Assembly (NCBI GenBank): GCA_020635395.1 | Contig: JACJZV010000001.1 | Span: 647,545 to 711,544 of the forward strand | Source of the DNA: Flavobacteriales bacterium | GTDB lineage: Bacteria; Bacteroidota; Bacteroidia; NS11-12g; UBA9320 | DNA: 64,000 nt | Direction of reading: 5' to 3' | The notes under the pieces: model-generated | What the model was told of the DNA's origin: nothing | The model's database searches: none | The model's input: only the letters and a program-made list of their open reading frames with translations | In this document: positions 1 through 58,615 of the stretch, piece after piece | Layout: every line of letters starts with the position of its first letter | Position numbering within the stretch: position 1 is the stretch's first letter | Position numbers and translations under genes: made by a program

Positions 1-150
1 AAAAGTAACTCTATTTTTCAACTATTTCAAAAAAGTTGCAATTTTAATCTTCTTATTATCAGCGAGTTAATTGTGTTTTGTTTTTGAGGTAAAAATCTAA
101 AATAGCGTTGAGGGTAGTTGTGCAACAGCTACCCGTGTTAGCAGTAGCAA
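1..150. repeat. Cassette-associated repeat A1. It is about 98% identical to 44683..44832 and lies immediately 3' (minus-strand sense) of the beta-lactamase gene
   Basis: Direct comparison of 1..150 with 44683..44832 shows only about 3 mismatches. It carries the internal 10-bp motif GTTGTGCAAC (117..126) and the terminal motifs cagctaccc and gttagcRgtag. Confidence 0.8.
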
Positions 151-153
151 TTC

Positions 154-960
154 TCATCTATCAGTTAGTTTGAGGTCGTTAAGGATTAAATAAACAATGT
201 CTATTCGAGCATTTGCAAAGTCCTTATTGTTTAAGTCAGCCGATTGAATGCAGTTAGCGAAATAATAAACTTTGTCTTTATTCTCAAGATAGCCAACATA
301 CCACCCAATATCTTTATTGTCTTGTCCGCCCCAACCAGTTTTTGCTCTAATTACATAATTCAATGTGTCCTTTGCAATCATTATATTTTTAACAATATCC
401 ATTGAACGCTTTGAAAAGGGAAGTTGGTTGTCGTGAAGTCGTTTTAAAAAGTCAATTTGTTGTTTGGGAGAAACACGAAGTCCACCAGTAAGCCAAAACT
501 TGTCTATGCCACCTGAAGTGTCAACGTTTCCATAGTTTGCTTTATCAAGCCAGTATTTCATTTGTTGTCCGCCAACTCGTTTTGCAAGTTCTTGATAATA
601 CCAAACTGTAGAATTTTTGAAAGCGGTCTTTAAGTCGTGGTCGCTATTCCAGTTTGGGTTTTGTCGGGTTACACTGTCCCAAGGAATTACAAAGTTCTCG
701 TCTTTAATTACTCCTGTCTCAAGTCCGATAAGCGAGTTACAAATTTTATAAGTCGAGGCAGGTGAAAAAGTTTGCTCGAATTGGTCTTTGTTGTAAAAAA
801 CATATTTGTCGTCTTGTGGGTCGTAAAGAACGAAAGAACCGCCAACATTAAATTGGTCGTAATATTTTTTAAAGTCGTCACGAATTTCTACCACCTGCTT
901 TTGCTTACAAGCTGTTAGTCCGAGAACCATTAAAGTCAAAATTATTATTGTCTTTTTCAC
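154..960 (-). CDS. Class D (OXA-family) beta-lactamase, lipoprotein-type signal peptide
   Basis: The 268-aa product has a lipoprotein-like N-terminus (LTAC). It has the class D active-site motifs STYK (S-x-x-K), STV (S-x-V), YGN and KTGWG plus a downstream W. Likely GTG start. Confidence 0.8.
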   Translation of the reverse strand: MKKTIIILTLMVLGLTACKQKQVVEIRDDFKKYYDQFNVGGSFVLYDPQDDKYVFYNKDQFEQTFSPASTYKICNSLIGLETGVIKDENFVIPWDSVTRQNPNWNSDHDLKTAFKNSTVWYYQELAKRVGGQQMKYWLDKANYGNVDTSGGIDKFWLTGGLRVSPKQQIDFLKRLHDNQLPFSKRSMDIVKNIMIAKDTLNYVIRAKTGWGGQDNKDIGWYVGYLENKDKVYYFANCIQSADLNNKDFANARIDIVYLILNDLKLTDR

Positions 961-964
961 TGTC

Positions 965-1045
965 GTTATATTGTTACTGCTAACGTTTTGCAGCTACCCG
1001 AAGGGCGGGGCTTTCGGAGCACTAATCTGTCAAGCTACGATAATG
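965..1045. repeat. Cassette-associated repeat C1 (module family C)
   Basis: The modules ttacYgcYaacgKtt, gcagctaccc and gggcgggKtttcggagcac are shared with 45270..45340 and 42605..42660. On the minus strand it reads GGGTAGCTG..GTTAGCAGTAA about 15 bp before the beta-lactamase start. Confidence 0.6.
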
Positions 1046-1050
1046 TTTAT

Positions 1051-2844
1051 TTATTGTACAACTGTTCCAATTCCCACTTCAGCCCCCGCTTTTGGCAAGG
1101 TGCTGTTAGCACCCGTTTTTATTTCTGTTAATTTGTCAACCAGGTCTTTCGGGAACATATTTAGTTTTCTTAATGCTTTAAACAAGGTCTTAAAATTAAT
1201 AATTGTGCTTGTGAAAATATTATTATAAACTTCATTCAATATCGTTTTTCCTCGTCTGTTCAATAACCATTTCGGATATAATAAAATTGTCTCACCAACA
1301 AATGACACTTCAATTCTTTCTGTTTCAGTCGCTGGGTCGAAATCAGGAAAGTATTTTTTTAATTCAGGTTCTACTATAGATATTATAGCGTCTGCGACTT
1401 TCTGTAAAGTTTCAGCAGGAAGCGATTTTAATTTGTATTCTTCGCCTACTGATAGCTTCAAACCCTCAACAGCTGGATTCTTTTCCTTGTCAATTAGTGC
1501 GGCATAAACAAGGATTGGATCAGCTAAATAATTTTCAATACTATATCTGTCTATTTTATAGACACCGTCAGATACGGCATTACCAGTGTCTGCGTCAATT
1601 AGTCCTTGAACAATATTTACTAATCCTGATTCTTGTAGCTTATTTACCCAATTCTGAACAACATCTTTGCCGCCTGATTTGTCTTTCGTAGATGCTGGAA
1701 TAAATACTAATGGAATATTTGCATCGATTTGATTTTCTGTTGTAAGTTGATTGTAAGCAAATGAATAAAATGAAACATCATCGTTGTCTTCAACAAGAAA
1801 ATACTTAGTTCCTTCACCTACATAAACCAATCCTGCTGTCAAGAGTGAAACAGAATGATTTTTTGAAGGGGATTTTCTAATTCGAGGTTCAACTCGTGAC
1901 ATTTCATAAATTGAATTATTGGGTGCAAGAATAACTGTTGAAGGAGAGTGGGTGGTCATTATTACTTGGACTCCAAATTTGTCAACAAGAACATTTTTGA
2001 TAACATTTAAAAACTGTTGAGACATTGATGGGTGCAGATGAGCATCAGGTTCGTCAAGTAATAATAATTTTGGAAATACTTTTTTTTCTTGGGAGTTGTA
2101 CAAATAAAACACTAATGAAATAAGTACTTTTTCTCCTGAAGACAAGTCATTAAAATTTATTTCCTCGTTTAATATTTGATGAGTAAGTTTTAATTGAAAG
2201 CCATCTCGAATTCCATTGTTTGAAGGGTCATTAACATCAAATGGTAATTTTGATTCTTTAATAATTTCTTTTAAAACAACCCACGGTTTTTCCCCGATTG
2301 ATTTTTTTATATTTTCTTCCGTTTCGTGTTTAGCCTGCAGTTCTATTTCGGATAACCTGTAATTATAAAAAACTTCACCAATCTTTTGACTTAGTTGGCT
2401 TTCCTGCTCAATTAATATCTCAGGAAAATATTCGTAAAATTCTTCTTTCGTTATGACATTGAATTGTTTCCCTGTTTTCTTAATAATTTCTTGGCATGCC
2501 CAAAACATTTTAATTTGTCCTTCTTGGTTTCTTTGATAGTTGCCACCTTTAAAGTTATTATAGTAACCATCCATCTGTTGCTGAATGGTAGAAAGATTAA
2601 CGTGTCCCGTATTTTGTAGTTGCCACTCTCCCTTAAGAAAAGTAACCTCATCTGGTTTGATGGATTTCCCTGTTATAACAACTCTTTCGGTAGTTCCTTG
2701 TTTATTGATAATCGTATTATGAATTAAATCTAATAGTTGCGATTTACCAGTTCCATTAGGTCCAGTTATTACAACGAAGTCAGGAATGTCTGTCCAGTTA
2801 AAACTTGTAATTGATTTGTATTTTTTGTCGAATTTTATTTCCAT
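1051..2844 (-). CDS. OLD-family ATP-dependent endonuclease (ABC-type ATPase plus C-terminal Toprim). Candidate anti-phage defence gene
   Basis: Walker A GPNGTGKS, Walker B LLLLDEPDAHLHP, a C-terminal Toprim-like LVEDNDD and IDADTG, and single-gene organisation. The start is trimmed from 2901 to the internal Met (MEIKFDK) at 2844. Confidence 0.7.
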   Translation of the reverse strand: MEIKFDKKYKSITSFNWTDIPDFVVITGPNGTGKSQLLDLIHNTIINKQGTTERVVITGKSIKPDEVTFLKGEWQLQNTGHVNLSTIQQQMDGYYNNFKGGNYQRNQEGQIKMFWACQEIIKKTGKQFNVITKEEFYEYFPEILIEQESQLSQKIGEVFYNYRLSEIELQAKHETEENIKKSIGEKPWVVLKEIIKESKLPFDVNDPSNNGIRDGFQLKLTHQILNEEINFNDLSSGEKVLISLVFYLYNSQEKKVFPKLLLLDEPDAHLHPSMSQQFLNVIKNVLVDKFGVQVIMTTHSPSTVILAPNNSIYEMSRVEPRIRKSPSKNHSVSLLTAGLVYVGEGTKYFLVEDNDDVSFYSFAYNQLTTENQIDANIPLVFIPASTKDKSGGKDVVQNWVNKLQESGLVNIVQGLIDADTGNAVSDGVYKIDRYSIENYLADPILVYAALIDKEKNPAVEGLKLSVGEEYKLKSLPAETLQKVADAIISIVEPELKKYFPDFDPATETERIEVSFVGETILLYPKWLLNRRGKTILNEVYNNIFTSTIINFKTLFKALRKLNMFPKDLVDKLTEIKTGANSTLPKAGAEVGIGTVVQ

Positions 2845-2861
2845 AGTTGTCTGTCTTAAAA

Positions 2862-2930
2862 TGGCAGCTAACATCCCTATATGCCCAATACAATAGTCCA
2901 ATTGTGCATATTTCCATTATCTATGCAACA
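2862..2930 (-). promoter_or_regulatory. Conserved array-head element H1. It is about 80% identical to 51812..51880 and placed about -18 to -86 relative to the first gene of array 1
   Basis: The blocks tagataatggaaatatgc, attgtattgggcatata and ggatgtta are shared with H2 at the same distance from the start codon of the first gene of array 2. It contains GTTAGCTGCC. Confidence 0.5.
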
Positions 2931-3326
2931 ATACATGCGACGCTGAAGATGTGGCTTCACCGCCAAACTCACACGGTCATGAGTTGTCTCATTCATCTGT
3001 CAAAAATATCTTTTTTCATAATAAATCCAAGCCTCTCCTTAATGACTTGTTGGTGGGTATTGCTAATTTTTTAAAGTGATGGTATAAAATTCCAATTTAC
3101 CCAACTCTATAAAGTCAATCGCACAAATCTTGATAAAGATTAAACGCTTTAAAATCAGCACACTAAATCCGTTATACCCATTTTCAAACGTTTTCAAGTG
3201 TTTTTATACGTATCTAAATGTTTTAAAAACCGATGGCACAAAATACCGCCCCAATCTTTGCAGTGTCGGAAATGGTTAAAACCCCACACCGACTTTTTTA
3301 AAGTAACATATTAATTTTTTAAACAC

Positions 3327-3665
3327 ATGAACACACTAAGAAACAGCGTACGATTGACAGGTCATTTGGGTGCTAACCCTGAGGTAAAAGAAGTAGCGGG
3401 CGGTAAAAAAATAGCTCGGTTTACGCTGGCCACCAACGAAACCTACCGCAAACAAGACGGCGAAAAAGTGACCGAAACCACCTGGCATCAGTTGTATGCC
3501 TGGGGAAAAACGGCTGAAATTGCCGAAAAATACCTCAAAAAAGGGCAAGAAATAAGCATTGAAGGCAAACTTACCAACCGCACTTGGGAAGACGAAAACG
3601 GCCACAAACGCAACATTACCGAAGTGCAGGTAAACGAGGTAATGATGTTTGGCAAAAAGGATTGA
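3327..3665 (+). CDS. ssb: Single-stranded DNA-binding protein (short form)
   Basis: The 112-aa product has an OB-fold SSB signature (TGHLGANPEV, FTLATNETYR, TTWHQLYAWGKTAE). Confidence 0.8.
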   Translation: MNTLRNSVRLTGHLGANPEVKEVAGGKKIARFTLATNETYRKQDGEKVTETTWHQLYAWGKTAEIAEKYLKKGQEISIEGKLTNRTWEDENGHKRNITEVQVNEVMMFGKKD

Positions 3666-32895: not shown

Positions 32896-33017
32896 AAAAA
32901 CAGTGATAAAACAAATGTCAAAAGTAAAGAAATGGGGAGCAAATAACTTTTTTTAAAAATTCATCCAACCATTTTATCCTTAGCTTCGTATTGGTTTTTC
33001 AAAAGAGAATAAAAAAT

Positions 33018-41851: not shown

Positions 41852-41977
41852 ATTATTGTATTTTAAAATTAACTATTTACACCAATTTGCCATTCGCAAT
41901 ATAGTTTTATTAAGTCACTCGATTTCAAATTTTTTTTGGTAGATTTTAAGATAACTGTTCTGCTCAGGTTGCAAGCT

Positions 41978-42020
41978 CCTCCTTATGGGGAGAGCCGCCT
42001 ACTCGTTTGGCAGCTACCCT
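41978..42020. repeat. Module W/Y copy (cctccttatggggagagccgcctactcg..cagctaccc) at the distal end of array 2
   Basis: The same 25-bp W module terminates the B elements at 46264, 47782, 48583 and 49305. Confidence 0.6.
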
Positions 42021-42601
42021 TCTTTTATCATTTTATAGATATTCGATTGATTAAACTGTTCTCTCCATTTCTCAATTCTATCAGTCTCACTTTCAATTTT
42101 TTGAATCTGAAATGATTCCACAAAACCAATTTTTAACCGAATTTCTTTTCCACCTTCATCTAATGGTATTTGAACAAAACAATCATGCTCATCACAAGTA
42201 ATTTTTGACTTAATTAAAGCTGAATCAATTTTGTTTGACAAGAATTCTTTTCCAAATTCCATTTGATAGGATAGCACTTTTAACGAATCTATTGTATTGT
42301 TACTGGTGTATATTGAATCTAATGATTGACGAGACAATTTGTGTTCTCCTAATCGTTTGTATATCTCGTATCTTAACAGGTTTGCCTTTTCATTTACTTG
42401 CATAACACAAAGGCCACAGGTGCAATAACCACACGTTTCAGCTTCCGTTATTTGCTTCAATGCTTTTTCGTTTTTTCCCTTAGTAACGTTTTTCTCTGCT
42501 TTATCAAGTAACATAAATGAATTCTGACCATAGCTCAACTGATAAAATACTATGAGTGTCACTATGGCGAAGGATCTGAGATATTTTACTTCTATTTTCA
42601 T
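42014..42601 (-). CDS. Hypothetical secreted protein (cassette-like array gene)
   Basis: Signal peptide. No recognised domain. Confidence 0.4.
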   Translation of the reverse strand: MKIEVKYLRSFAIVTLIVFYQLSYGQNSFMLLDKAEKNVTKGKNEKALKQITEAETCGYCTCGLCVMQVNEKANLLRYEIYKRLGEHKLSRQSLDSIYTSNNTIDSLKVLSYQMEFGKEFLSNKIDSALIKSKITCDEHDCFVQIPLDEGGKEIRLKIGFVESFQIQKIESETDRIEKWREQFNQSNIYKMIKEG

Positions 42602-42604
42602 TTT

Positions 42605-42660
42605 TTTAATTTCTAAGACGTTTTAGGGCTTTGTGTTCAGGCAGTTTCGCGGGCCATTGG
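42605..42660. repeat. Module C copy (cgttttagggctttgtgttcaggcagtttcgcggg)
   Basis: About 75% identical to 45293..45328 and 985..1022. Confidence 0.5.
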
Positions 42661-42697
42661 GGTGATTTAACCAGTGAACCACGGTAGGTGTTGTGAG

Positions 42698-43438
42698 TTA
42701 TTTTAACTTCTTAAATACATAATCCCAGTCTTTATAAGTCCAATCATTTTCACCGATAAATTCATGGTCCGCACATTCATAAATTTCATTTACATTGAAA
42801 ATCTGATTATTTTCTCTTGCTTCATCCCAAAGGTTCATTAGCCCAGATTTATCCTTTATTTTTTCAAACTTATTTTTAACATTTTTAAAACAAACTAAAT
42901 CTCCAAACTCTGAATTTCCACATGGATGATAATTTGAGTATTTACAGGATATACAGGTTTTAATTTCATAATTTTCAGGGAGCGTCTTTTGCATATCAAT
43001 CATAAGATATTCAAAATTATACATATTCCTTGCAAATAAATTCTCTCCAAAAACAGTCTTAAAAGTTGCTTCTTTTATAACCAACTCAACACCGTAATCT
43101 TTTTTATTTTCAATACTTTTTTCCAATTTTAAAATCAGTTCGCCATTAAAATTATTCTTTAAGTGGCCAATGATTATAGGTATCTCAATTTCTAATTCAA
43201 AATTTGTTAACTCATTGTAAGAATTAAATTCAAAATTACCCTTAGTTTCTTTTGTTTCTAATGACTCAAACTCACGTCCTTCAAAGATTGTATTCCTTAA
43301 TTCTAATCTTAAATTGCTTCCATGCGAAATAACCTCAGATTTGAGCGAACCGAATTTGTCAGTATATTTTACGAGATATTTTTTTAAACACATGCTCTTA
43401 CTCTTTATTTTTCTGGCATTAACTATACTGTAAAACAC
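42698..43438 (-). CDS. Hypothetical protein, AT-rich (cassette-like array gene)
   Basis: ORF only. Confidence 0.4.
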   Translation of the reverse strand: MFYSIVNARKIKSKSMCLKKYLVKYTDKFGSLKSEVISHGSNLRLELRNTIFEGREFESLETKETKGNFEFNSYNELTNFELEIEIPIIIGHLKNNFNGELILKLEKSIENKKDYGVELVIKEATFKTVFGENLFARNMYNFEYLMIDMQKTLPENYEIKTCISCKYSNYHPCGNSEFGDLVCFKNVKNKFEKIKDKSGLMNLWDEARENNQIFNVNEIYECADHEFIGENDWTYKDWDYVFKKLK

Positions 43439-43689
43439 GGAGAAGCCAAATCATCTAAACGTACTTTATTTAAAATTCTGTACGAATTTCTCCTCTTCAG
43501 TGCATGGTGTAAATATAGTTCGAAAGATAAGAAATTGATTGTCAATTTGATATAAATTATTTCCGTCTGGAACAGGTGCATCTAAATCGGGGAAGCCACT
43601 ATTCGGCGACGTCGCCAACATTGCTATTATTATCACAAAAGGTCAAGTTAGCACGTGTCCTCCAGTGGTGGAAACAGCCGTATTCTATA

Positions 43690-43775
43690 CCCCAATCCCG
43701 ATAGCTATCGGGATTGGGGTGAGAGGTACACTCTCATCATTTATGGGGAGAGCCGCCTACTTGATTATGTGCTGT
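43690..43775. repeat. Composite repeat made of a perfect 30-bp palindrome V (ccccaatcccgatagctatcgggattgggg), then a truncated B 3' half, then the W module
   Basis: The palindrome was read directly. The gaggtacactctcatcatttatggggagagccgcctacttg part matches the B-element 3' end. Confidence 0.7.
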
Positions 43776-43782
43776 TATTTTT

Positions 43783-44511
43783 TTATTCATATGGTTTCCA
43801 GTTTTTGTCTTTGGGTTCCTTGTAATTTGCAGGTCTTACATTTCGCTTCATTTCTTCATCACAAGCTCCGAACTCAATAAAGTTTTTTTGTGCCTGTCTT
43901 AACGAAATTGTGTTTGCTCCACCTTCATAATATGGGTCGTCAAGTTGGATTGGGTCATCTTCCCAAAAGCATACAGGGCAAATATCATAAGTTCCATTTG
44001 GTTTCTCCGTAAACGTTTTATGTCCACAACAAGGACAAGCAAATTTTGAATTAACTGTCAATATTAGTAATGCCTTTTCCAATGCATCTTTGTCAAAACC
44101 GATTGATGGTCTTGTTGCAACCCAGCGTTCTTTTATATACTCTGGCAATGCGTTTATTGATTGGTCATCATCAATAATAACATAGTTCTGTCCCTCTCCT
44201 TTTTTTTCAACCCATTCTTTAATTTCGGTTCCTCTGTCTAATAATTGACTTATTTCTGTTTTGTTATTTAGTTTTGATATTGTTTCAAAATTCAATCCTC
44301 TTAATCTAAAAATCTCTTTCCATTTAGTTTCGTCATAATTTATTCTATGAGTTGTTGTCAAAACTATCGAAGCATTTGTCCTTTTGTGAAGGATTAATAA
44401 GTTTTCAAGTGCTTTTTTATTTAGTTTCATAAATCCGTCAGAATATATTTCTGCCTGTCGCCAAGTAGGTGTCGTTTCCAAAACTCCGTCTATGTCTAAA
44501 AGTATTGTCAT
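43783..44511 (-). CDS. HAD-like hydrolase domain fused to a cysteine-rich CPCC domain
   Basis: N-terminal DxD HAD motif (LLDIDGVL) and a C-terminal CPCCGHKTF...CPVCFWEDD cysteine-rich CPCC-type module. Confidence 0.5.
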   Translation of the reverse strand: MTILLDIDGVLETTPTWRQAEIYSDGFMKLNKKALENLLILHKRTNASIVLTTTHRINYDETKWKEIFRLRGLNFETISKLNNKTEISQLLDRGTEIKEWVEKKGEGQNYVIIDDDQSINALPEYIKERWVATRPSIGFDKDALEKALLILTVNSKFACPCCGHKTFTEKPNGTYDICPVCFWEDDPIQLDDPYYEGGANTISLRQAQKNFIEFGACDEEMKRNVRPANYKEPKDKNWKPYE

Positions 44512-44682
44512 TCTGTTTTGTGTCGGTCTTTATAATAGCACATAACTTTTTGCCGCTTGCCGCAGTGGGGGATTTCGAAGCACTTCACTTTCAACCAAGC
44601 ACAAATGTTGATAGAATCACAGCACTTGATTTAACCACGTCAACCCCCATTGCGGCAAACGACTGTGCCTGTTGCACAACTC
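44512..44682. repeat. ORF-less structured spacer element with a 12-bp inverted repeat (ccgcaGtggggg / cccccaTtgcgg) and module Z (atttcgaagcac)
   Basis: Read directly. No credible ORF. It lies between repeat A2 and the CPCC gene. Confidence 0.5.
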
Positions 44683-44832
44683 AAAAGTAACTCTATTTTT
44701 CAACTATTTCAAAAAAGTTGCAATTTTAATCTTCTTATTACCAGCGAGTTAATTGTGTTTTGTTTTTGAGGTAAAAATCTAAAATAGCGTTGAGGGTAGT
44801 TGTGCAACAGCTACCCGTGTTAGCGGTAGTGT
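44683..44832. repeat. Cassette-associated repeat A2, about 98% identical to 1..150
   Basis: Direct comparison. It is bounded by the inverted 10-mers GTTGCACAAC (44671..44680) and GTTGTGCAAC (44799..44808). Confidence 0.85.
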
Positions 44833-45267
44833 TTACGTCATGTGTTTAAGGAAAAGTGTAATGGTTTCATATGTCAATTCGTTATCCTTGATTATATAGT
44901 TGTCAAACCAGTCGTTGTTACTTAGTGTTTGTGCTACCAACCAAGATTCTTTGCCAAGATATAAAAATCGTTTGCCGCCAACTTGTATTAACCATGAACC
45001 AAAATCCTTCTCGTGATAAGATTCTTTTGTAATCACCTTGTCTGTTAGTCGTAATAAGCAAAAGTCGAAAAGAAATTTATTCCAATTGCTTGAAACTTTT
45101 CTTTCAATGTCAAACGCATAACTTATAGCCTTGTCAATCGTATTATCAGTTGCATTGTCAACCAATTCTGCTTTTCGCCCAAATTTGTCAGTAAGAGTAA
45201 CTTTAAAAACTCCGTTCGAAATTTCGTCAATTTTAGTTGTCCAACCTGGTAGTGATTTTGTGTTCAT
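44833..45267 (-). CDS. Hypothetical protein (cassette-like array gene)
   Basis: ORF only. Confidence 0.4.
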   Translation of the reverse strand: MNTKSLPGWTTKIDEISNGVFKVTLTDKFGRKAELVDNATDNTIDKAISYAFDIERKVSSNWNKFLFDFCLLRLTDKVITKESYHEKDFGSWLIQVGGKRFLYLGKESWLVAQTLSNNDWFDNYIIKDNELTYETITLFLKHMT

Positions 45268-45269
45268 AG

Positions 45270-45400
45270 TGTCTGTCTAACATTACCGCCAACGGTTTCG
45301 GGCTTTGCGTTCGGGCGGGTTTCGGAGCACAAAGTTTCAATTTATTACTAAAGTTTATTAGAAGCACAAAGCTCCATCCCGATAGCTATCGGGATTGCAC
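45270..45400. repeat. Composite repeat made of module C (ttaccgccaacggtttcgggctttgcgttcgggcgggtttcggagcac) plus palindrome V copy (atcccgatagctatcgggatt)
   Basis: Related to 965..1045 and 43690..43719. Confidence 0.6.
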
Positions 45401-45440
45401 GTCAACCCGCATGACGCAACCCGTGTTATAGCCAGTTTTT

Positions 45441-45797
45441 CTATTCATTGGTCAACATTACTATTGTCTTATTTTTTGTCTCTGCACATTTATTTTCTGT
45501 CGGCATATTAGTTTTTATTTTCAATATGTCGTCATTTCTTTTAATGCTAAAGTTCATAACATTATAGATTGCGTCATTTAAGTAATATTCAAATAATTTG
45601 GTCGTGTCATTTCCATAATTTGCAAAAAATTCAAATCTGTAATTGTCAATCTCAGTCTGATAAACGCTATAAAAAATGTGTTCATTAGGTTCGTTTGAAA
45701 TTGTTCTCGTCACAATGAGGTTGTTCTGTTCAAAATAGGAACAGCCAACTATGAATAGTAAAAATATCAATGCATATTTTGGTATTTTTTTATTCAT
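45441..45797 (-). CDS. Hypothetical lipoprotein (cassette-like array gene)
   Basis: Signal peptide with the lipobox LFIVGCS. Confidence 0.4.
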   Translation of the reverse strand: MNKKIPKYALIFLLFIVGCSYFEQNNLIVTRTISNEPNEHIFYSVYQTEIDNYRFEFFANYGNDTTKLFEYYLNDAIYNVMNFSIKRNDDILKIKTNMPTENKCAETKNKTIVMLTNE

Positions 45798-46047
45798 ATA
45801 CTTTCGCTCCTTTAAAAATGTCTACAAATGTTGACCAGTCTGGTTTGTCCGCATTTACATTTAGTTTCATATTGTCGTAATAGCCTTGAATGTCTTCAGT
45901 AAACGCACCCAACGCTTCCAGAAAATCGGTCAAAGTTTTGTTTTCCCAATTTTCAGGATTGGCTAAAAAGTCTTTGCGTAATAAGCCAAGAAACTTAATG
46001 AAATTTTGTCTGTCCGTTACTTTAAAGTCGTTAAGTGTGTCGTTCAT
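45790..46047 (-). CDS. Hypothetical small protein (85 aa). It overlaps the next gene by 8 bp with no intervening repeat
   Basis: ORF only. It forms a two-gene unit with 45441..45797. Confidence 0.35.
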   Translation of the reverse strand: MNDTLNDFKVTDRQNFIKFLGLLRKDFLANPENWENKTLTDFLEALGAFTEDIQGYYDNMKLNVNADKPDWSTFVDIFKGAKVYE

Positions 46048-46165
46048 AAAATTGGCTATAACGTGCCAGCACTAAATGTTGTGCCACTTTTTTCACTATT
46101 TGTTGTCAGTATAAATATACAATTTTATTTCTAATTCCCTGTCTGTCAGGCATAACATTTAGTGC

Positions 46166-46292
46166 ACGTGTGTGCCGCCAATGGCAAACACCCTCCAAGT
46201 TTAGTTGAAAGGAGAGTGATAACCAATAGTTATGTTGGATTAGCTAATGAGGTGTACACTCCTCATTTATGGGGAGTTCCGCCTACTCGATT
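46166..46292. repeat. B-family structured repeat copy B1
   Basis: gtgtgccgccaatggcaaacaccctcc..aggagagtgataaccaatagttatgttggattagctaatgaggtgtacactcctcatttatggggag..cgcctactcg. Internal hairpins are ataac/gttat, ttagctaa and aatgagg/cctcatt. Confidence 0.8.
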
Positions 46293-46298
46293 ATGGGC

Positions 46299-47513
46299 TT
46301 ACAATTCAATTTTCCAAAGACCATTTTTGCCTCCGACAATTACGCTTCCCTTAGGATCGATTGCAAGGTAAAAAGCACTTTCAATGCCAGCAAATAAGTC
46401 CTTTGACCTAAAAGTATAATATTCCCCATTACTTGTCCGAATACCGAAGTCTGGATAACCCATCCAACTTGTTGTATACCAAATATTAGATTTTTCATCA
46501 ATAACTATAGAATTTGGTAATGGAATTACCGTTCCACAGTCTGGTTTTAATTTTTCATTGAAAGATTCAGATTGAATATCCAACCCTAATCCAATAAATG
46601 ATTTACTAAACCCAGGGTTTTGACCATAATGTGTACTATTATATAGATTAATACAAGGGATATTTATAACAGAATTTTTTTCGAAAACACTTCCAAATTG
46701 CTGAATACTGTCAAATGTGAAAGTTTTCCACTCATTATTTTTAATTCTAAGTAATTCAGCTTGTGAGGCTGCATTTATTCCATTACCTTTAGTTGCATAG
46801 AATCTGACCCAAACGGAGTTATCACTGGTTATAGTTATTCCATCAAGTCTTTTACCTACTGGTAGTCCATTATTTTCTGTGAATGTTAAAACATCGGAAG
46901 CTGAAATTAAACTCAATCCATTTTCCTCCCAGTTGGATCCAGGCTGAGGCTGGGTCGTATGACCTACCCAAACATTGTCAGATTGGTCAACTGCAACATA
47001 TTTCGTATGGTTATTTAGGAGACCTTCATTTTTTGAAAAGAGTTGCATTGAATTCCAGTCATATCTGCACAAACCCTTGGGAGTAGCCATCCATAATCGT
47101 CCTTTGCTGTCTTCATCAACTCCTGTAATAGTGTCTGAAGGTAATCCATCTTCTTTGCCAATATGTAACCATTTTTGTTGGGCAAAATCGAAATAATCTG
47201 CACCTTTATTCGTTCCAACCAGAATTGCCCCTGATACCTTGGAAACTGACAGATGATTAATTCGCCCGTTTGCTAAATTATGGGTTAAGTTTTCTTTTTT
47301 TTCAAAAATAGAGAAGTCGTTAAAGTTTTTACTATTCCAGCAGCTATCCCAAGTAAATTCGGACACGACAACTAGAGGTTTAGATGGTTCCTCTTTTTCT
47401 TTACAAGATAATGCCAAAATAGAAAAAGAGATAACTAAGAATGTAATTGTTTTATTCATATTTCTGTTTTTAGTTCTGACTAACGCAAAATTATGTTTCT
47501 GATTACCAAGCAA
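46299..47513 (-). CDS. Lipoprotein with two-component-regulator-propeller (Reg_prop-like) beta-propeller repeats
   Basis: Lipoprotein signal and repeated ..DG..W.GT..GL..YD blades. Confidence 0.45.
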   Translation of the reverse strand: MLGNQKHNFALVRTKNRNMNKTITFLVISFSILALSCKEKEEPSKPLVVVSEFTWDSCWNSKNFNDFSIFEKKENLTHNLANGRINHLSVSKVSGAILVGTNKGADYFDFAQQKWLHIGKEDGLPSDTITGVDEDSKGRLWMATPKGLCRYDWNSMQLFSKNEGLLNNHTKYVAVDQSDNVWVGHTTQPQPGSNWEENGLSLISASDVLTFTENNGLPVGKRLDGITITSDNSVWVRFYATKGNGINAASQAELLRIKNNEWKTFTFDSIQQFGSVFEKNSVINIPCINLYNSTHYGQNPGFSKSFIGLGLDIQSESFNEKLKPDCGTVIPLPNSIVIDEKSNIWYTTSWMGYPDFGIRTSNGEYYTFRSKDLFAGIESAFYLAIDPKGSVIVGGKNGLWKIEL

Positions 47514-47682
47514 TCACAAAGTATCATTTTTTACCTCTTTTTCAGAGGTTTTTTCGACTTCGTTGGCCTCCAAAATTAATAAAGAAAATTCAGAAATGAG
47601 AAATTGAATTAGACTCATTTCGGAATTTTTATTTTTGGATTGCCCATAACGGTGAGTGTACGCGTAGTTTGCACGTTTAGGG

Positions 47683-47816
47683 CTACACCGTGTGTGTGTG
47701 CCGCCAATGGCAAACACCCTCCAGAAAGGAGAGTGATAACCAATAGTTATGTTGGATTAGCTAATGAGGTGTACACTCCTCATTTATGGGGAGAGTCGCC
47801 TACTCGTTTGTGTGTA
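47683..47816. repeat. B-family repeat copy B2. It has an 11-bp deletion relative to B1 and is flanked by the imperfect inverted repeat ctacaccgtgtg / tgtgtgtag
   Basis: Direct comparison. Its 3' flank encodes the last 4 codons of the upstream ORF. Confidence 0.8.
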
Positions 47817-48414
47817 GTTTTTGTTCTTTATATACTTTCGTTATTTCGCTTTTTAATTCATTGTACCTTTTAGGTTCGGTCAGTTTTTTCAGTGAATTAA
47901 TTGTGATTGAGCTCTGACTTCTTTCATAGTTGTCAAGTCGATATGTTGGTAGAACATAAAAATCCCATTGCTCCATTTTTAAAGGGTCAATTGTTTTTTG
48001 GTCTTTGTGTTTTAAATGACAGAACACATAAAGGTCAGCGTGTCTTTTGGGTTCTCCACGTTGCATATTTGTTTCTGCATCCCAATATCTTGCAGGTTTA
48101 ATTGAAAATGAAATAGTCGAAAAGTTCTTTTGATTCCAACTTTGAATATAAGCGGCAGATTTGACTTCTATTTTTATTCCGTCGATAGTTGTCAAGTCAT
48201 ATGCATCCCATTCATCTCTTAAATTTTCAGGATTTAGTCCAACTGCTGTCCCGACGATAAACTCTGCAAATCTTCCGCGAGTTGCATTGCTCAAAATGTC
48301 AGAAACGCTCCAACGCCAAAAGTCCAATAGGTTAAAATTTGTTTCCTTACCATTGTCGGTAAGGGTTTCATTTCCGTTTTTGGGGCTTGCTTTTATTTCT
48401 TTGAGTTCGTTCAT
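47800..48414 (-). CDS. Hypothetical protein with a PD-(D/E)xK-like nuclease motif
   Basis: D..(x)n..IEVKS arrangement (DAYDLTTIDGIKIEVKSAAY). Weak. Confidence 0.35.
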   Translation of the reverse strand: MNELKEIKASPKNGNETLTDNGKETNFNLLDFWRWSVSDILSNATRGRFAEFIVGTAVGLNPENLRDEWDAYDLTTIDGIKIEVKSAAYIQSWNQKNFSTISFSIKPARYWDAETNMQRGEPKRHADLYVFCHLKHKDQKTIDPLKMEQWDFYVLPTYRLDNYERSQSSITINSLKKLTEPKRYNELKSEITKVYKEQKLHTNE

Positions 48415-48482
48415 TTCTAATTACACACGACGGTTCGTATATGGTGTCGTAGCATCCCGCAGGGTGCTATGTATTATATACC

Positions 48483-48618
48483 ATGTGTGTGCCGCAAATG
48501 GCAAACACTCTCCAAATTTAGCTGAAAGGAGGGTGATAACCAATAGTTATATCGGATTAGTTGATGAGGTGCACACTCCTCATTCGTGGCGAGAGCCGCC
48601 TAATGGATTGTGTGTATT
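48483..48618. repeat. B-family repeat copy B3, the most diverged
   Basis: About 85% identical to B1. Confidence 0.7.
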
Positions 48619-49047
48619 ATCTGTTAAAATTCTGTTTTTTGGAATCAGCTGATGCATTACGAGTAAAAATAATACACCTTTAGTAAAACCATTTGGAATA
48701 AACTTTACAAACGAGTCGTAAATATCAAATTGAAATCCTAATCCAGCTCCTATTATTAAAGAAATTATTATGGAAGAAATTAAGCAAACAATGCCATAAA
48801 TGCTACCAAATATTAAAGCTTTTGATAGCGATATTCCGAGATTATCTTTTGAAATATTCCTTACTAACAAATGGGTTACGAAAGCGGTAATTATTAAAAA
48901 TAAAAACTCTAAAACCATCTCATAGATGAAAAAATAGATATTGAATATTCTAGTCATTTCAAATTCGGTAAATATTAATTTTCTAATCAAATCTATTCCA
49001 ATTGAGATTAATCCAAAAAACAATATTGCTCTAAAAACCTTTGTCAT
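48580..49047 (-). CDS. Small integral membrane protein (4 TM). Its last 11 codons are encoded by the B3/W repeat
   Basis: Hydrophobic profile. The C-terminus THNPLGGSRHE is read through the repeat. Confidence 0.4.
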   Translation of the reverse strand: MTKVFRAILFFGLISIGIDLIRKLIFTEFEMTRIFNIYFFIYEMVLEFLFLIITAFVTHLLVRNISKDNLGISLSKALIFGSIYGIVCLISSIIISLIIGAGLGFQFDIYDSFVKFIPNGFTKGVLFLLVMHQLIPKNRILTDNTHNPLGGSRHE

Positions 49048-49211
49048 TCTTTACAGTTTATCTTAGTGTTATGCATACGCTGCGATTACGCATAACGGTA
49101 TAGGGTAAGAAACGTAGGGCATTTCGAAGCAATTTCCTGTTCACCGAAACGGAACTTGCTAAGAGCCCAAAACTTGCGGAAACCACTGCCCGCCCTATGT
49201 TTTATACCCAT

Positions 49212-49345
49212 TGTGCGTGCCGCCAATGGTAAACGCCCTCCAAATTTAGTTGAAAGGAAAGTGATAACCAATAGTTATGTTGGAATAGCTAAATAGGTAC
49301 ACTCTCCTCATTTATGGGGAGAGCCGCCTACTCGATTAGGAGCAT
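49212..49345. repeat. B-family repeat copy B4
   Basis: About 90% identical to B1. Confidence 0.8.
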
Positions 49346-49350
49346 CATAA

Positions 49351-49854
49351 TTATGAAATCCAAATCATTTCATTGCTTACAACTCGCCATTTTCCGAGGC
49401 GTTTTTTTAATTCAACAACATTTCCAGACGAGCTTAAGTTACCTTCGTAATATCCACAATAAACACTGGCTTTGTTTCCAGACACAATTACTTTTGAAAT
49501 ATTGAATGAAAGAAAATCAATTTCACTTTTTTCTTCGTCTGTCATATTATTGAACATTGAAATGTCCTTTACTTTGGGAGAATTCCTTTTTAGCTTATCC
49601 AATACAAATGGTAAGGATTGATTGAGAGAATCGTCTAAACTTAGAAAATAGTAGGTGGCTTTTTCTTTGGTTGCAGATGCGTTTTCTTTAAATAATGCTT
49701 TGAATGCAGCAACTTCAATTTTAACCAATGTCGTCTTTGGGATATTGTTATTCTGCAAACCCTCTTTTATATTTCCTGTCTTTTGGCTGAATACTGTGCC
49801 AGAAAGAAGTAAGAGAAGTGTCGGAAACACAAGGACTTTGAGTATTAAATTCAT
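49351..49854 (-). CDS. Hypothetical secreted protein (cassette-like array gene)
   Basis: Signal peptide. Confidence 0.4.
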   Translation of the reverse strand: MNLILKVLVFPTLLLLLSGTVFSQKTGNIKEGLQNNNIPKTTLVKIEVAAFKALFKENASATKEKATYYFLSLDDSLNQSLPFVLDKLKRNSPKVKDISMFNNMTDEEKSEIDFLSFNISKVIVSGNKASVYCGYYEGNLSSSGNVVELKKRLGKWRVVSNEMIWIS

Positions 49855-50063
49855 TTGATTGCCATTTAAATTATTTCTGTCGCATTCTAGAAAGTCAAAT
49901 TCTATCTGGTGTTGGTGTAATTGCTCCTAACGTATTCGTGTATGAGTAGTGGCGGATTTTAACCCACTAAACTATCAGATAACATCGACCTTTGATTTAT
50001 AATTTTATGTTTCTATTAAGCACCAAACCCGCTATTGCAAATGTGCTGTTAGCGGTAGTTTTT

Positions 50064-51143
50064 CTATTCTGTAAGTTCATAAACAGATATTGTTTTGTTG
50101 TCTGCCGTTAAGAAACAACCTGTCCCAACGCTGTATTCGTTTACTTTCAAAATTTCGTCTTTAAAAGCGATTTGTCCATCCGATGAAATTACCGAAAAGC
50201 CACCTTCGTCAGAAACTGTGATGAACGAATTCATTGCTCTATTGAAATACATTTTCGAACTAAGGATATTTTTGTCAACAATCTGAATTTTCTTACCTAT
50301 CTCAACATTGTCCCCGCTGATTTTGAGAAAATGAATTTCACAAGGAGAGTCTGCTGTTGAATTTTCATCTCCTTCGGTAAATGGATTATACGCAATAGCA
50401 ATAGTATCATTGTCAATCCAACATGTCGCTCTGTTTTCATGTTCCCAACCACCTATTCTCAAATCTGATATTCTATTACTTGTGATAAAATTTTCAATAT
50501 CATAGACATTATAGCAATCGTATGAACCCCAAGCCCAACCTGCACTCAAAAATTTCTTCTGATTAGGCGAAATAAAAAGTTTGCCAAAAAAATAGTCGTA
50601 TGGTCTCGGCCAAGGTAATTTGTTGTCCTCAGAATGTTTTTTATAAAAATCAATGTGTCTTTCTTCCGCCCCTTCTTCAATCAAGGATTTTGAAGCAGTC
50701 AGGATTTGTCTGGTGTCAAGATTCATGATTTGAATATGATTCCATGCTTCACCAAAAATTAAATGGGGCACTCTTTCTTGATTTTTATAAAGTACTATTG
50801 GATAAGTTGAAATGTCAGCGTGATAGTCTTCTCTCCACAAGTGCAAGGCATGATACTTGTTGGGATAATGAACAAAACCATGTCTTTTGAAGTCATTAAC
50901 TACAACTACAATTTCGTCCATTGTGTAAATTGAAGTCTTTGCTGTTAAGTCAAAACCTCCGTCTGAATATCCAAAATTGCTTTTTACTGAAAATAAATGC
51001 TTTCCCTTTTTGTCGTCCAAATTAAACCGAATGACATTACCAGAACTCATCAACATAACAACTTCATTTGACTTTGATAAAGTCGCAGTCATAATAGTTT
51101 CGTCAGTGTCAAAAGTGATGTCGTAAATTTTATTTGTTTTCAT
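50064..51143 (-). CDS. Hypothetical protein, beta-rich and possibly beta-propeller-like (cassette-like array gene)
   Basis: ORF only. Confidence 0.4.
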   Translation of the reverse strand: MKTNKIYDITFDTDETIMTATLSKSNEVVMLMSSGNVIRFNLDDKKGKHLFSVKSNFGYSDGGFDLTAKTSIYTMDEIVVVVNDFKRHGFVHYPNKYHALHLWREDYHADISTYPIVLYKNQERVPHLIFGEAWNHIQIMNLDTRQILTASKSLIEEGAEERHIDFYKKHSEDNKLPWPRPYDYFFGKLFISPNQKKFLSAGWAWGSYDCYNVYDIENFITSNRISDLRIGGWEHENRATCWIDNDTIAIAYNPFTEGDENSTADSPCEIHFLKISGDNVEIGKKIQIVDKNILSSKMYFNRAMNSFITVSDEGGFSVISSDGQIAFKDEILKVNEYSVGTGCFLTADNKTISVYELTE

Positions 51144-51317
51144 TCTAATCGTCTATTCGCTTGGTAGCTTTAAAATTACCGCTAACGGTTAGTATATGAA
51201 AAGTAGGCGATTTAGAAGCTCTAATTTTTCGGTTAAACACAAATTTTAATGCGAGCCATAACCTATGAATTTATCGCTGTTTCGCCTATTTTTTATATAC
51301 AGTGTTGTAGTGCGTTT

Positions 51318-51803
51318 TTATTCATTATTAGTTGTCGTAAACACTTGATAGAAGTATGACAGGTTATCAGGCTCTCCATTTGCAAATCGTTTAAAAGCTT
51401 TGGCAATCGGGTCGCAAACAGTTCCGTTTGGTAGTTTAATTACAATTGGCATCATATTTACTCCTTCTGGAAGGTTCGCGTCTTCTTGCTTAATCCACCG
51501 TCCATTTGCATTCTCAATCATTACTTGTCCAGAATAGCAACCAGCAACAAAAATTGTCTCAGCAAAATCGTCAACGTTCCATTCTTTACTAAAGTTGTCC
51601 AGAAATTGGTCAACAAAATTCAGCGAGTCAACTGAATAATCTAACTCAATTCCTTCGTTTTCTTTAACAGCTCCACTAAAAAACTCACTCAACCCTTTTC
51701 CATTTTCAGGGTTTGGTTCTAATTGTAAGTTTAGTCCGCGGTTTGGAAAGACTTGTTTTGGCTTTTCTTCTTTCTTTCCGAAAAGGTTTTTAAATATGCT
51801 CAT
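51318..51803 (-). CDS. Hypothetical protein. It is the first gene of array 2
   Basis: ORF only. Confidence 0.4.
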   Translation of the reverse strand: MSIFKNLFGKKEEKPKQVFPNRGLNLQLEPNPENGKGLSEFFSGAVKENEGIELDYSVDSLNFVDQFLDNFSKEWNVDDFAETIFVAGCYSGQVMIENANGRWIKQEDANLPEGVNMMPIVIKLPNGTVCDPIAKAFKRFANGEPDNLSYFYQVFTTTNNE

Positions 51804-51811
51804 CTGTTTTT

Positions 51812-51880
51812 TTTAATGCCCTATAACATCCGTATATGCCCAATACAATGTTCCTATTACGCATATTTCCATTATCTACG
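51812..51880 (-). promoter_or_regulatory. Conserved array-head element H2, about 80% identical to 2862..2930
   Basis: See H1. Same spacing from the first start codon. Confidence 0.5.
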
Positions 51881-52101
51881 AAACCAAAACAGGGTTTGAA
51901 ATTTAATGTATCCGTTTTCATTTTTTTTGGCTTCGTTCCATTCAGTCAAATATAGAAACTTTTTTTAGAAATTATCCAAAATGCCAATAGCACCTTGCGG
52001 TTTGTAACAAGGCCAAAGAAAAATGCCATTCTGTCACCATTTTAGGTTAAAAAGTGGTTGGCAAAGTAGTTGATATTGCCCAAACATTAATTCATAATCG
52101 G

Positions 52102-52641: not shown

Positions 52642-52648
52642 TACAAAC

Positions 52649-57044: not shown

Positions 57045-57225
57045 AATTAAGGTTTTAAAACAGTAAGAACAATGGTTTTAACGATATGCAGTAGGTTATG
57101 TTACAGCCACTTGCAATTTTTGTTAGAAAACATGACAAAATACTTTGCCCGAAAGCCTCATTTTTTTGAAGCTCGGAATAATAATATTGCCAAATTCTTA
57201 CCTTTGCCCAAAATTTATTGGTTAA

Positions 57226-58534: not shown

Positions 58535-58545
58535 TTGTGTGAACA

Positions 58546-58615
58546 CGCCTGTAGGAACACGCCTCGAGGCGTGTTCACACAGGCGTGTCCCTACAAGGCG
58601 TGTTCCCACCAATAC
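58546..58615. repeat. GC-rich cluster of five 10-bp GAACACGCCT motifs (2 direct, 3 inverted), including a perfect 22-bp palindrome
   Basis: tgtgaacacgcct gtag gaacacgcctcgaggcgtgttc acac aggcgtgtcc ctaca aggcgtgttcc. Confidence 0.6.

Follow-up and report, generated by a model that had tools for sequence, protein, structure and literature searches.

The 64,000-nucleotide stretch analysed here (the window) comes from an uncultured Flavobacteriales bacterium. Its positions 1-2935 very probably form the head of a cassette array of the integron type in the chromosome. A first-pass annotation had proposed a cassette-capture array at this edge, carrying a beta-lactamase gene and a nuclease gene, and we found all of the features that it claimed for the region in their places. 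Its integron-like reading is supported by the structure of the attC-like sites, by cassette boundaries at G|TT and by the varied contexts in which the cassettes occur. Counted from the head, the first cassette encodes a fused ATPase-Toprim protein, and the beta-lactamase (bla) cassette abuts it at 984|983. The window also holds a sister array of the same modules, array 2. The features are as follows.

1..132, minus strand: element A, a miniature transposon-like insert inside the bla attC, 148-150 nt in full (terminal inverted repeats, target duplication)
133..144, minus strand: 5' end of the bla attC, with R'' core CTGCTAAC (144-137), then ACGG (136-133), the target duplication of element A (sequence)
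154..960, minus strand: predicted gene for a class D (OXA-type) beta-lactamase whose signal peptide is of the lipoprotein type (NCBIfam bla_class_D_main)
978..1111, minus strand: attC-like site belonging to the ATPase-nuclease cassette; R'' TGCTAAC (1111-1105) and R' GTTAGCA (984-978) enclose an imperfect hairpin (covariance model)
1051..2844, minus strand: predicted fusion of an ABC-type ATPase and a DUF4435/Toprim-like nuclease domain, a single-gene defence candidate (PADLOC, Pfam)
2860..2929, minus strand: H1, conserved head element and candidate attI-like insertion site
3001..3031, minus strand: promoter-like box reading into the array, TTG, 19 nt, then TATTTTTG (conserved with array 2)
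41852..51890, minus strand: array 2 (repeats, covariance model, GC)
44540-44669, 45287-45431, 49090-49217, 49925-50054 and 51180-51310, minus strand: attC-like sites of array 2 (covariance model)
44665-44814: element A in array 2
46168-46290, 47694-47806 and 49213-49335: positions where element B copies of array 2 end or begin
51815-51884: H1 of array 2

The repeats between the ORFs are hairpins of about 132 nt, each made of an xxxTAAC core, an imperfect stem whose pairs covary, and a GTTRxxx core. We assembled 45 distinct sites from at least 8 genomes, and they fit a single 132-position model. AAC is present in 44-45 of the 45 sites and the G of GTT in 43, and the inner TAAC and GTTA positions are conserved; the outer core positions fit RYYYAAC/GTTRRRY only loosely, YGCTAAC/GTTAGCR being typical. 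Compensatory changes occur in all of the 14 stem pairs, and 90.8% of cells are paired, compared with 32-45% for slid partner columns. The observed covariation, 0.587 (about 0.07 for slid partners), was reached in none of 500 shuffles. The sites have two of the features that define an attC: inverse core sites, and between them an imperfect palindrome that is conserved in structure and not in sequence. Their length also fits that of attC sites, about 57-141 nt, with most sites measuring 130-134 nt, as uninterrupted ones do in several genomes, and others 77, 92 or 145 nt.

These sites were called with our own covariance model and not with IntegronFinder. Matches are confined to gaps between same-strand ORFs and to the coding strand. 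The model found 6 sites in array 1 and 5 in array 2, as well as matches in nine other Bacteroidota loci, always on the cassette strand; one of the nine is a 17-site array in the cultured Chryseobacterium gotjawalense. The genomes that bear arrays include three complete ones (CP124855.1, CP129492.1 and OZ260106.1) and the metagenome-assembled genome (MAG) GCA_041391645.1. Across the 64-kb window, no match with E<0.01 fell outside the two arrays on the cassette strand, and 1.34 Mb of other Bacteroidota DNA, scanned as a control, gave two strong matches, both at one locus.

In canonical attC sites, the L'' arm of the bottom strand bears the extrahelical bases, and each arm has 5-6 nt of unpaired central spacer (Nivina 2016, PMC5027507). 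In-silico arm alignments of our sites do not follow this pattern: the R''-L'' arm has 0-3 nt of spacer and the L'-R' arm 4-7 nt. In these alignments the additional bulges fall on the L'-R' arm of the coding strand, opposite the arm with the canonical extrahelical bases.

Both arrays are headed by a promoter-like box and the attI-like element H1, roughly 60 nt. The claim that H1 is shared between the heads held up, with 83% identity between 2860-2929 and 51815-51884. H1 ends GGGATG|TTAGCT (core 2872-2866), and similarity to the array 2 copy stops at GTTA; in the alignment, the block conserved in both heads ends at GGATGTTA, and the first cassettes diverge from there. An attI adjoins the first cassette, ends in the GTT core and is the place where the integrase binds and inserts. 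H1 is conserved at both heads, with similarity ending at GGATG|TTA in this comparison of two copies. Genome and metagenome collections scanned for the exact pattern yielded no third copy. We regard H1 as a candidate site of cassette insertion. The promoter-like box has its array 2 counterpart, TTGGAT...TATATTTGAC, at 51980-51947. Bacteroidota promoters of the -33/-7 type have the consensus TAnnTTTG, and the 3001..3031 box is promoter-like in this sense. Two contigs from metagenomes, L002 and L099, break here, and their overlap is exactly 3001-3029.

We searched for a recombinase by tblastn with IntI1 and XerD as queries. No tyrosine recombinase was found in the window and the 9.8 kb to its left (74 kb), nor within 10 kb on either side of the nine other arrays. 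The searched loci likewise contained no complete integron, with an intI gene that has the integron-specific insertion and lies beside attI and Pc, and four array heads (array 1, array 2, L084 and L092) have no adjacent integrase. A CALIN is defined by two or more attC sites spaced no further than 4 kb apart and by the lack of a nearby intI (Cury 2016, PMC4889954), and this is the arrangement found here.

Each cassette comprises an ORF just after a TTRxxx core together with its own attC-like site of about 132 nt, laid out as an xxxTAAC core, an imperfect hairpin whose stem varies in sequence between sites, a short unpaired spacer and a G abutting the TT of the next cassette. We propose that excision and insertion would proceed by site-specific recombination at G|TT, new cassettes would enter at the attI-like H1, and the promoter-like box upstream of H1 would read into the array. 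The recombinase, not being encoded nearby, would act in trans and is probably a tyrosine recombinase of the IntI type. Alternatively, the system might merely resemble an integron, with hairpins used by a recombinase other than IntI, such as another tyrosine recombinase lineage encoded elsewhere, and with heads that are never linked to an integrase. The four heads and the nine further arrays without an integrase (within 10 kb for the latter) are consistent with this alternative, as is the reversed asymmetry of unpaired bases. IntegronFinder surveys found Bacteroidota to be without or nearly without integrons (PMC9024848; bioRxiv 10.1101/2024.07.02.601686), and the 11 taxon models of PMC8352920 include no attC type from Bacteroidota. 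However, all testable features of movement are integron-like, namely the G|TT crossover, the attC 3' of the ORF, the complementary cores and the single orientation. Integrase-less attC clusters are, moreover, common in ordinary integron hosts (PMC4889954), and an IntI gene may lie elsewhere in the genome, beyond the searched loci. We consider a recombinase other than IntI unlikely, if worth keeping in mind, and favor an IntI-type enzyme acting in trans.

The first cassette had been annotated as an OLD-family nuclease. The ORF at 1051-2844 is better placed in the OLD-like superfamily at large than in a defined OLD class, its best PADLOC matches being the fused PARIS model AriAB (5.7e-32) and ATPase-Toprim_I-B (4.7e-27). 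Pfam detects AAA_15 and AAA_21, whereas DUF4435 reaches 24.4 bits, short of its cutoff of 27. Solved AriA, OLD and PtuA chains are only marginally similar in sequence (E 1e-3 to 1e-2). Walker A, LSSGE, DEPD, H299, E352/D353/D356 and D417-x-D419 are invariant in 30 homologues, and the protein is predicted to combine an ABC ATPase with a C-terminal Toprim domain containing the catalytic Glu and DxD. It has 597 residues, compared with 579 in most homologues, and the attC encodes the last ~18 codons of the ORF. Indeed, the attC-like site at 978-1111 (134 nt, 100 bits, E 1.2e-19, minus strand only) overlaps the 3' end of the gene, and the repeat previously called C1 (961-1050) is part of it. Homology of this cassette with four other loci (L102, L104, L105 and L106) starts at G|TTAGC, spans the entire attC and stops at CG|TTA; in L102 the whole site 978-1111 is kept along with the gene. 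An identical protein (P0134) is found behind at least three different upstream sequences.

The second cassette encodes a predicted class D beta-lactamase. The ORF at 154-960 scores 272.9 bits against NCBIfam bla_class_D_main (cutoff 250), and its translation contains STYK, STV, YGN and KTG, corresponding to the class D motifs S-x-x-K, S-x-V, Y-G-N and K-T-G. Its best solved relative is 6nhs_A (1.5e-70). No plasmid-borne OXA is more than 44% identical to it, and the protein falls under the cutoff of every named OXA family in NCBIfam. On the minus strand, GTTAGCAG lies at 984-977, 16 nt 5' of the GTG start. This core-like sequence had been proposed as the R' core of a cassette junction, and that proposal is borne out. 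OXA homologues with 82-87% identity sit in unrelated chromosomal contexts, namely next to cytochrome genes (L084), with pyruvate carboxylase on one side and alanine dehydrogenase on the other (L090), and alongside a T9SS protein (L092), and in five loci the cassette homology begins at the TTAGCA core. The hairpin body of this cassette is not conserved between genomes; the flanking cores alone are kept. After the stop codon of the OXA homologues in two other genomes comes GAATTGCTRCTGCTAAC, and the bla R'' core CTGCTAAC is fully complementary to TTAGCAG, the 5' end of the same cassette.

The bla attC is interrupted by an insert. The repeat named A1 in the first-pass annotation is common to array 2, as claimed (window positions 1-147 are 99% identical to 44683-44829), but rather than an attC module it is a transposon-like insert of 150 nt, element A, in the bla attC. 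The three copies of element A are 97-99% identical and have imperfect terminal inverted repeats, GTAGCTGTTGCACAACT / AGTTGTGCAACAGGCAC, with 4-bp target duplications in two of them (ACGG and ATCG). The copy at the window edge reaches 17 nt left of position 1. Element B, of about 122 nt, lies precisely between AA and C of the R'' core, and with element A or B taken out, the sites that carry them measure 130-133 nt again. Neither element has a match among the Rfam families. The other core-like sequence that had been reported, ahead of ORF 50064..51143 in array 2, is also present, with GTTAGCGG 35 nt 5' of the ORF.

Comparison of the cores argues for a mobile past. In the pairs of cores that flank an ORF, 39 of 48 outer positions are complementary, compared with 18.4 +/- 3.7 after permutation, and 39 was reached in 0 of 100000 permutations. 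In contrast, the cores flanking a hairpin match at 18 of 42 positions. Complementarity across the ORF and not across the hairpin is predicted by a past circular form of the cassette. The units thus have the properties that define gene cassettes: a boundary at G|TT, an attC that moves with the upstream ORF, differing contexts, and a 5' TTRRRY complementary to their own R''. Additionally, unitig L099, found in 2 samples, spans exactly 980-3029 and ends inside the R' core, and no 31-mer repeat in the known 74 kb accounts for this break, which we take as a sign of variation within the population.

These data bear on a simpler reading, in which both genes are intrinsic to the chromosome and the repeats, as REP- or MITE-like intergenic elements or as terminators, have nothing to do with gene movement. 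Elements A and B are truly transposon-like inserts, the hairpins lie downstream of ORFs as terminators do, and class D enzymes are intrinsic in some Bacteroidota, such as the Chitinophaga enzyme 8ep6. However, neither the beta-lactamase nor the ATPase-nuclease gene was found near murA/trx in 80 related genomes, and the reading of them as syntenic, intrinsic genes therefore fails. The homologues occupy unrelated contexts with homology breaking exactly at the cores, and the complementarity of ORF-flanking cores is far beyond chance. The ATPase-nuclease is also 85% identical to a Chryseobacterium protein, whereas MurA reaches ~70-83% at most to any relative. We regard intrinsic genes as largely refuted and highly improbable.

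The array continues beyond the window, as had been anticipated. A contig in GCA_041391645.1 is identical to the window and extends 9.8 kb leftwards, where ORF-plus-repeat units recur: about 8 additional ORFs that share the strand and the repeat modules of the array, and about 6 further cassettes. The last repeat on this contig lies ~5.8 kb left of position 1, for a total array length of ~8.7 kb. A leftward search had been suggested for further units and for a recombinase; it yielded the units but no recombinase in the 9.8 kb. The arrays are lower in GC than their flanks; array 2 has 0.32-0.36, compared with 0.38-0.44 around it. Because the source is a MAG and the window begins within a near-identical repeat, one might suspect that two unrelated pieces were joined at the 147-nt repeat (99% identity), but such an artefact is scarcely credible, since the contig runs smoothly for 9.8 kb leftwards with an intact attC beyond element A, the same gene neighbourhood recurs in a second assembly of >1 Mb, and an independent Logan unitig equals 980-3029 with zero mismatches.

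In Gram-negative pathogens, resistance genes are assembled mainly through integrons. The mapping of integron reservoirs in the environment has relied largely on a single tool and has dealt largely with Proteobacteria. To this the analysis adds large cassette arrays in environmental and cultured Bacteroidota. They appear, from their predicted proteins, already to hold a distinct lineage of class D beta-lactamase and candidate single-gene anti-phage systems, and the same cassettes are found across genomes of several Bacteroidota families. The ~132-nt attC family spans Flavobacteriales-like, Weeksellaceae, Vicingaceae and Sphingobacteriales genomes. Tentatively, the arrays could represent a Bacteroidota lineage of integron-like platforms that surveys have largely missed, with the ~132-nt attC family and its reverse-arm unpaired bases, with promoter and attI-like heads unlinked to an integrase, and with a recombinase elsewhere that is perhaps not a classical IntI; this is possible, and we do not lean toward it. 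The cultured host C. gotjawalense would make it testable. An unlinked or unusual recombinase, if true, would widen the design space of cassette-capture systems and would account for the near absence of integrons scored in this phylum. Should an ordinary IntI lie elsewhere, the finding reduces to a new host range and a new attC type, still useful for surveys of resistance reservoirs.

Among known systems, the ATPase-nuclease is closest to PARIS (AriA/AriB) and the OLD-family ATPase-Toprim proteins (Gabija GajA, the retron Eco8 effector). It shares their N-terminal Walker A, LSSGE signature, Walker B and H-loop, and their C-terminal Toprim-like domain with invariant Glu and DxD. It differs in being a single fused polypeptide whose Pfam DUF4435 match is sub-cutoff and whose function is predicted from sequence. 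Defence cassettes have already been described in chromosomal integrons (bioRxiv 10.1101/2024.07.02.601686). The attC 5' end is a described hotspot for attC-targeting elements (PMC3001079), and elements A and B, like IS1111-attC insertion sequences and group IIC-attC introns, lie near it in a single orientation. Unlike those elements, A (150 nt) and B have no coding capacity, and A has inverted ends and a 4-bp duplication.

Class 1-5 mobile integrons with blaOXA share with this array a class D beta-lactamase cassette bounded by GTTRRRY-type cores. Here, in contrast, the cassette sits in the chromosome and lacks both an intI and the backbone of a transposon or plasmid, and the predicted enzyme is distant from the plasmid-borne OXA proteins (at most 44% identity) and below the named OXA cutoffs of NCBIfam. 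With known integron cassette arrays in general, the arrays share small ORFs that lie on one strand, mostly lack promoters and each have a structured attC with AAC/GTT cores behind them, as well as the G|TT crossover, the similarity of sites within an array (L090, L107) and the types of cargo, namely toxin-antitoxin, restriction-modification and defence genes. As in CALINs, there is no integrase nearby (Cury 2016, PMC4889954). Unlike known arrays, these keep a conserved head without an integrase, and this head occurs twice in one genome. Their unpaired spacer and bulges lie on the arm opposite to that of canonical attC sites, their host phylum has been reported as almost integron-free, and a single ~132-nt site family is common to several Bacteroidota families.

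The first-pass annotation had described two minus-strand ORFs and three repeat elements at the left edge of the window (1-2935, array 1), including a head element, H1, shared with a sister array (array 2, 41852..51890). Family models and self-comparison of the window placed both ORFs and all three repeats at those positions. Identity is 99% between window 1-147 and 44683-44829, and 83% between H1 at 2860-2929 and its counterpart at 51815-51884. A core-like sequence claimed to lie about 15 bp 5' of the beta-lactamase gene is present as GTTAGCAG, 16 nt upstream of the start codon. Array 1 had also been predicted to continue leftwards. Contig JAWKNP010000003.1 (MAG GCA_041391645.1), which is identical to the window across 13.7 kb, supplies 9.8 kb left of position 1, and there we found further minus-strand ORFs with the same repeat modules between them: TspO, a 234-aa ORF, DUF1877, a 117-aa ORF, a pair of 245 and 188 aa, and a 58-aa ORF with a TPR protein. 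The final repeat lies ~5.8 kb to the left of position 1, with no model sites past that point, so array 1 is ~8.7 kb long and holds about eight cassettes. The array DNA had no plasmid match.

The ORF at 154-960 (minus strand) matches the NCBIfam class D beta-lactamase model at 272.9 bits (cutoff 250) and encodes an OXA-type enzyme that has a lipoprotein-type signal peptide as well as the motifs STYK, STV, YGN and KTG. Among solved structures it is closest to uncharacterised class D enzymes, including one from Chitinophaga, and it shares at most 44% identity with any plasmid-borne OXA. The ORF at 1051-2844 (minus strand) encodes an ATPase of the ABC type (AAA_15, AAA_21) that also matches DUF4435 weakly; in PADLOC it scores best against fused PARIS AriAB (5.7e-32) and an ATPase-Toprim model (4.7e-27). 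Walker A, LSSGE, DEPD, H299, E352/D353/D356 and D417-x-D419 are invariant in 30 homologues, and we assign the E352/D353/D356 and D417-x-D419 residues as the predicted Glu and DxD of the Toprim fold. Relative to most homologues of this ATPase-nuclease, the ORF reaches 18 codons into its own attC.

Read on the coding strand, the inter-ORF regions carry an R'' core, xxxTAAC, right after the stop codon and an R' core, CGTTRxxx, shortly before the following ORF. Between the cores lies an imperfect hairpin whose stem sequence varies from site to site. Uninterrupted sites measure 130-134 nt in several genomes, and apparently longer ones come to 130-133 nt once an inserted element is taken out. Hairpin arms were compared by arm alignments, and compensatory changes occur in all 14 stem pairs derived from an alignment of 15 sites. 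A covariance model built on this alignment matched six sites in the 64-kb window, all on the minus strand:

978-1111, minus strand, attC-like site in array 1
44540-44669, minus strand, attC-like site in array 2
45287-45431, minus strand, attC-like site in array 2
49090-49217, minus strand, attC-like site in array 2
49925-50054, minus strand, attC-like site in array 2
51180-51310, minus strand, attC-like site in array 2

Control DNA from other Bacteroidota (1.34 Mb) gave matches at a single locus. Over all loci the model gathered 45 distinct sites, in which 90.8% of cells are paired, compared to 32-45% with a slid partner column. The covariation score was 0.587 (slid partners, ~0.07), a value that no shuffle out of 500 reached. 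A naive R''/R' scan that asked for complementarity at 6/7 positions or more could not tell the arrays apart from the remaining window sequence (minus strand, 25 hits; plus strand, 22), because the outer core bases of one hairpin come from two different cassettes. Rfam at gathering thresholds found no family in the window or in locus L001, and permissive thresholds gave a single chance-level match in array 2 (E 0.39). The alternating inverted cores had prompted an analogy with Xer/dif modules, which we set aside since the sites are long covarying hairpins and not 28-bp dif-like sequences.

Sites of the ~132-nt family also flank murA, 8 kb to each side, in a contig of an Arcticibacter sp. MAG (Sphingobacteriales; L014, 1793-1923 and 19549-19677). 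On a single strand of the cultured Chryseobacterium gotjawalense (CP124855.1, 836018-857772), a stretch of 21.7 kb contains at least 17 attC-like sites. Many of them are near-identical to one another, a pattern shared with sedentary chromosomal integrons, and the strain is a possible experimental system.

Comparison with other genomes located the cassette boundaries. ATPase-nuclease homologues with 84-89% identity sit within long same-strand arrays, and one identical protein, P0134, follows three different upstream sequences (L102/L106, L104 and L105), with homology starting at G|TTAGC in all of these loci. Between the window and L102, homology spans the entire attC-like site and ends at CG|TTA. 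OXA homologues (82-87% identity) occupy unrelated chromosomal places; in five loci homology of this cassette begins with the TTAGCA core, and in three it ends at GAATTGCTRCTGCTAAC. The first-pass annotation had proposed that intrinsic genes would be syntenic in all relatives, and near murA/trx in 80 related genomes both genes are absent.

A mirror-image model, with the crossover at the AAC just past each ORF and the attC owned by the downstream ORF, was first suggested by the end of OXA homology at CTGCTAAC and by bulges on the 'wrong' arm. We discarded it, since the entire attC downstream of the ATPase-nuclease gene moves with that cassette and the attCs upstream of it vary. The cores show the trace expected of a cassette that was once circular and closed at its own attC: across both arrays, ORF-flanking cores match at 39/48 outer positions (permutations, 18.4 +/- 3.7; 0/100000 reached 39), whereas hairpin-flanking cores match at just 18/42. 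Additionally, a metagenome unitig from two samples spans exactly 980-3029. Its end falls within the R' core, and known sequence holds no repeated 31-mer that would explain the break at 980, which points to alternative cassettes past this attC in the natural population.

The pair of loci L091 and L092 was uninformative: a replaced restriction-modification segment sets them apart, and attC sites do not bound it. In a 20.8-kb JGI contig (3300056626, L096), an OXA homologue of 86% identity lies in a long same-strand array beside an aminoglycoside phosphotransferase, a nucleotidyltransferase toxin-antitoxin pair and a Fic gene. Its flanks belong to a different repeat family (...CCCGCTGGCGCAAGTGTTCC...GCAATAACA...), and that contig has only one 132-nt-type site.

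Two further elements are inserted in the sites. Element A (148-150 nt, non-coding) has three copies that are 97-99% identical. Its ends are imperfectly inverted, and its 4-bp target duplications read ACGG and ATCG. Every copy is in an attC-like site, 4 nt past the R'' core. Element B (~122 nt, seven full copies, a single orientation throughout) folds into 3-4 hairpins and sits exactly between AA and C of the R'' core.

1-132, element A
44665-44814, element A
~1420-1567 nt left of the window start, element A
46168-46290, element B
47694-47806, element B
49213-49335, element B
~48485-48600, element B
near 43720-43790 and 41980-42013, partial element B

The element A copies of arrays 1 and 2 have a common left flank, and the array 2 copy has no duplication, suggesting exchange between the arrays. 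Element B splits the R'' core and may thereby immobilise the cassettes concerned. Neither element has an Rfam match, and the exact pattern of element B had none in the metagenome contig collection, which apparently does not include the source MAG. Locus L014 contains a 28-nt match to element A (3390-3417). The attC-targeting IS1111-attC insertion sequences and group IIC-attC introns insert near the same attC end as these elements (PMC3001079).

Both arrays open with one module, a TTG...TAnnTTTG box followed ~70 nt on by H1.

3031-3001, minus strand, TTG...TAnnTTTG box of array 1, shared with array 2
51980-51947, minus strand, TTG...TAnnTTTG box of array 2, shared with array 1

The box is a putative promoter, which we take from its consensus to be of the Bacteroidota -33/-7 type. 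Similarity between the H1 copies ends at GGATG|TTA, and we treat H1 as a candidate attI-like site. Its exact pattern had no match in the genome or metagenome contig collections, the source MAG apparently being outside both. An ATG in H1 overlaps the G|TT core (2866-2874, 51821-51829). In array 1 (ATG TTA GCT GCC...) this ATG shares the reading frame of the ATPase gene and is its start in the public annotation (607 aa); the array 2 sequence is ATG TTA TAG. The arrangement is reminiscent of the short leader that class 1 integrons translate at attI1.

No integrase adjoins any of four heads (array 1, array 2, L084 and L092). Using hand-entered IntI1 and XerD query sequences, tblastn found no tyrosine recombinase in the window and its left extension, in 80 murA loci or in the other array loci, C. 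gotjawalense included. L002, from the ssb side, and L099, with H1 and the ATPase cassette, are metagenome contigs that both end at 3001-3029 and overlap in only these 29 nt, so in the samples concerned this stretch seems not to be limited to one context.

The two closest available relatives (L004, L006) have the gene order DUF4290-murA-trx-(0 or 1 gene)-grpE-dnaJ. In the window, trx-like 3777-4271 and grpE-dnaJ 52054-53770 lie 48 kb apart, each adjoining an H1-headed array. A single inversion from array 1 to ~40050 would bring the tails of both arrays together between ssb/trx and grpE, so they may once have been a single hotspot. Elsewhere, a 62-nt palindrome with two GAACACGCC-type half sites occupies 58535-58596, in the gap that separates ORF 57072-58472 from ORF 58686-59561, and is possibly a terminator or an operator. 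Within ORF 32991-35111, five repeat copies ~249 nt apart (33399-34657) encode a W-x-F-G-D-G motif and resemble tandem PKD-type protein domains.

Judged by its sequence, the locus appears to work like an integron cassette array and falls within the definition of a CALIN, an attC cluster without a nearby integrase (PMC4889954). It differs from what is known in that its heads are intact, yet without an adjoining integrase, and in that one ~132-nt site family is common to several Bacteroidota families, including the 17-site C. gotjawalense array. Compared to canonical attC sites (PMC5027507), these sites have an asymmetric unpaired spacer, and their bulges are on the arm opposite the canonical extrahelical bases. 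Taxon-specific attC models include none for Bacteroidota (PMC8352920), and a review counts the phylum among integron hosts (PMC8618304). If an ordinary IntI is encoded elsewhere in these genomes, the finding would be a new host range and attC type and not a new variant. The host itself sets the locus apart from the integrons of IntegronFinder surveys, which score Bacteroidota as lacking or nearly lacking them (PMC9024848; bioRxiv 10.1101/2024.07.02.601686).
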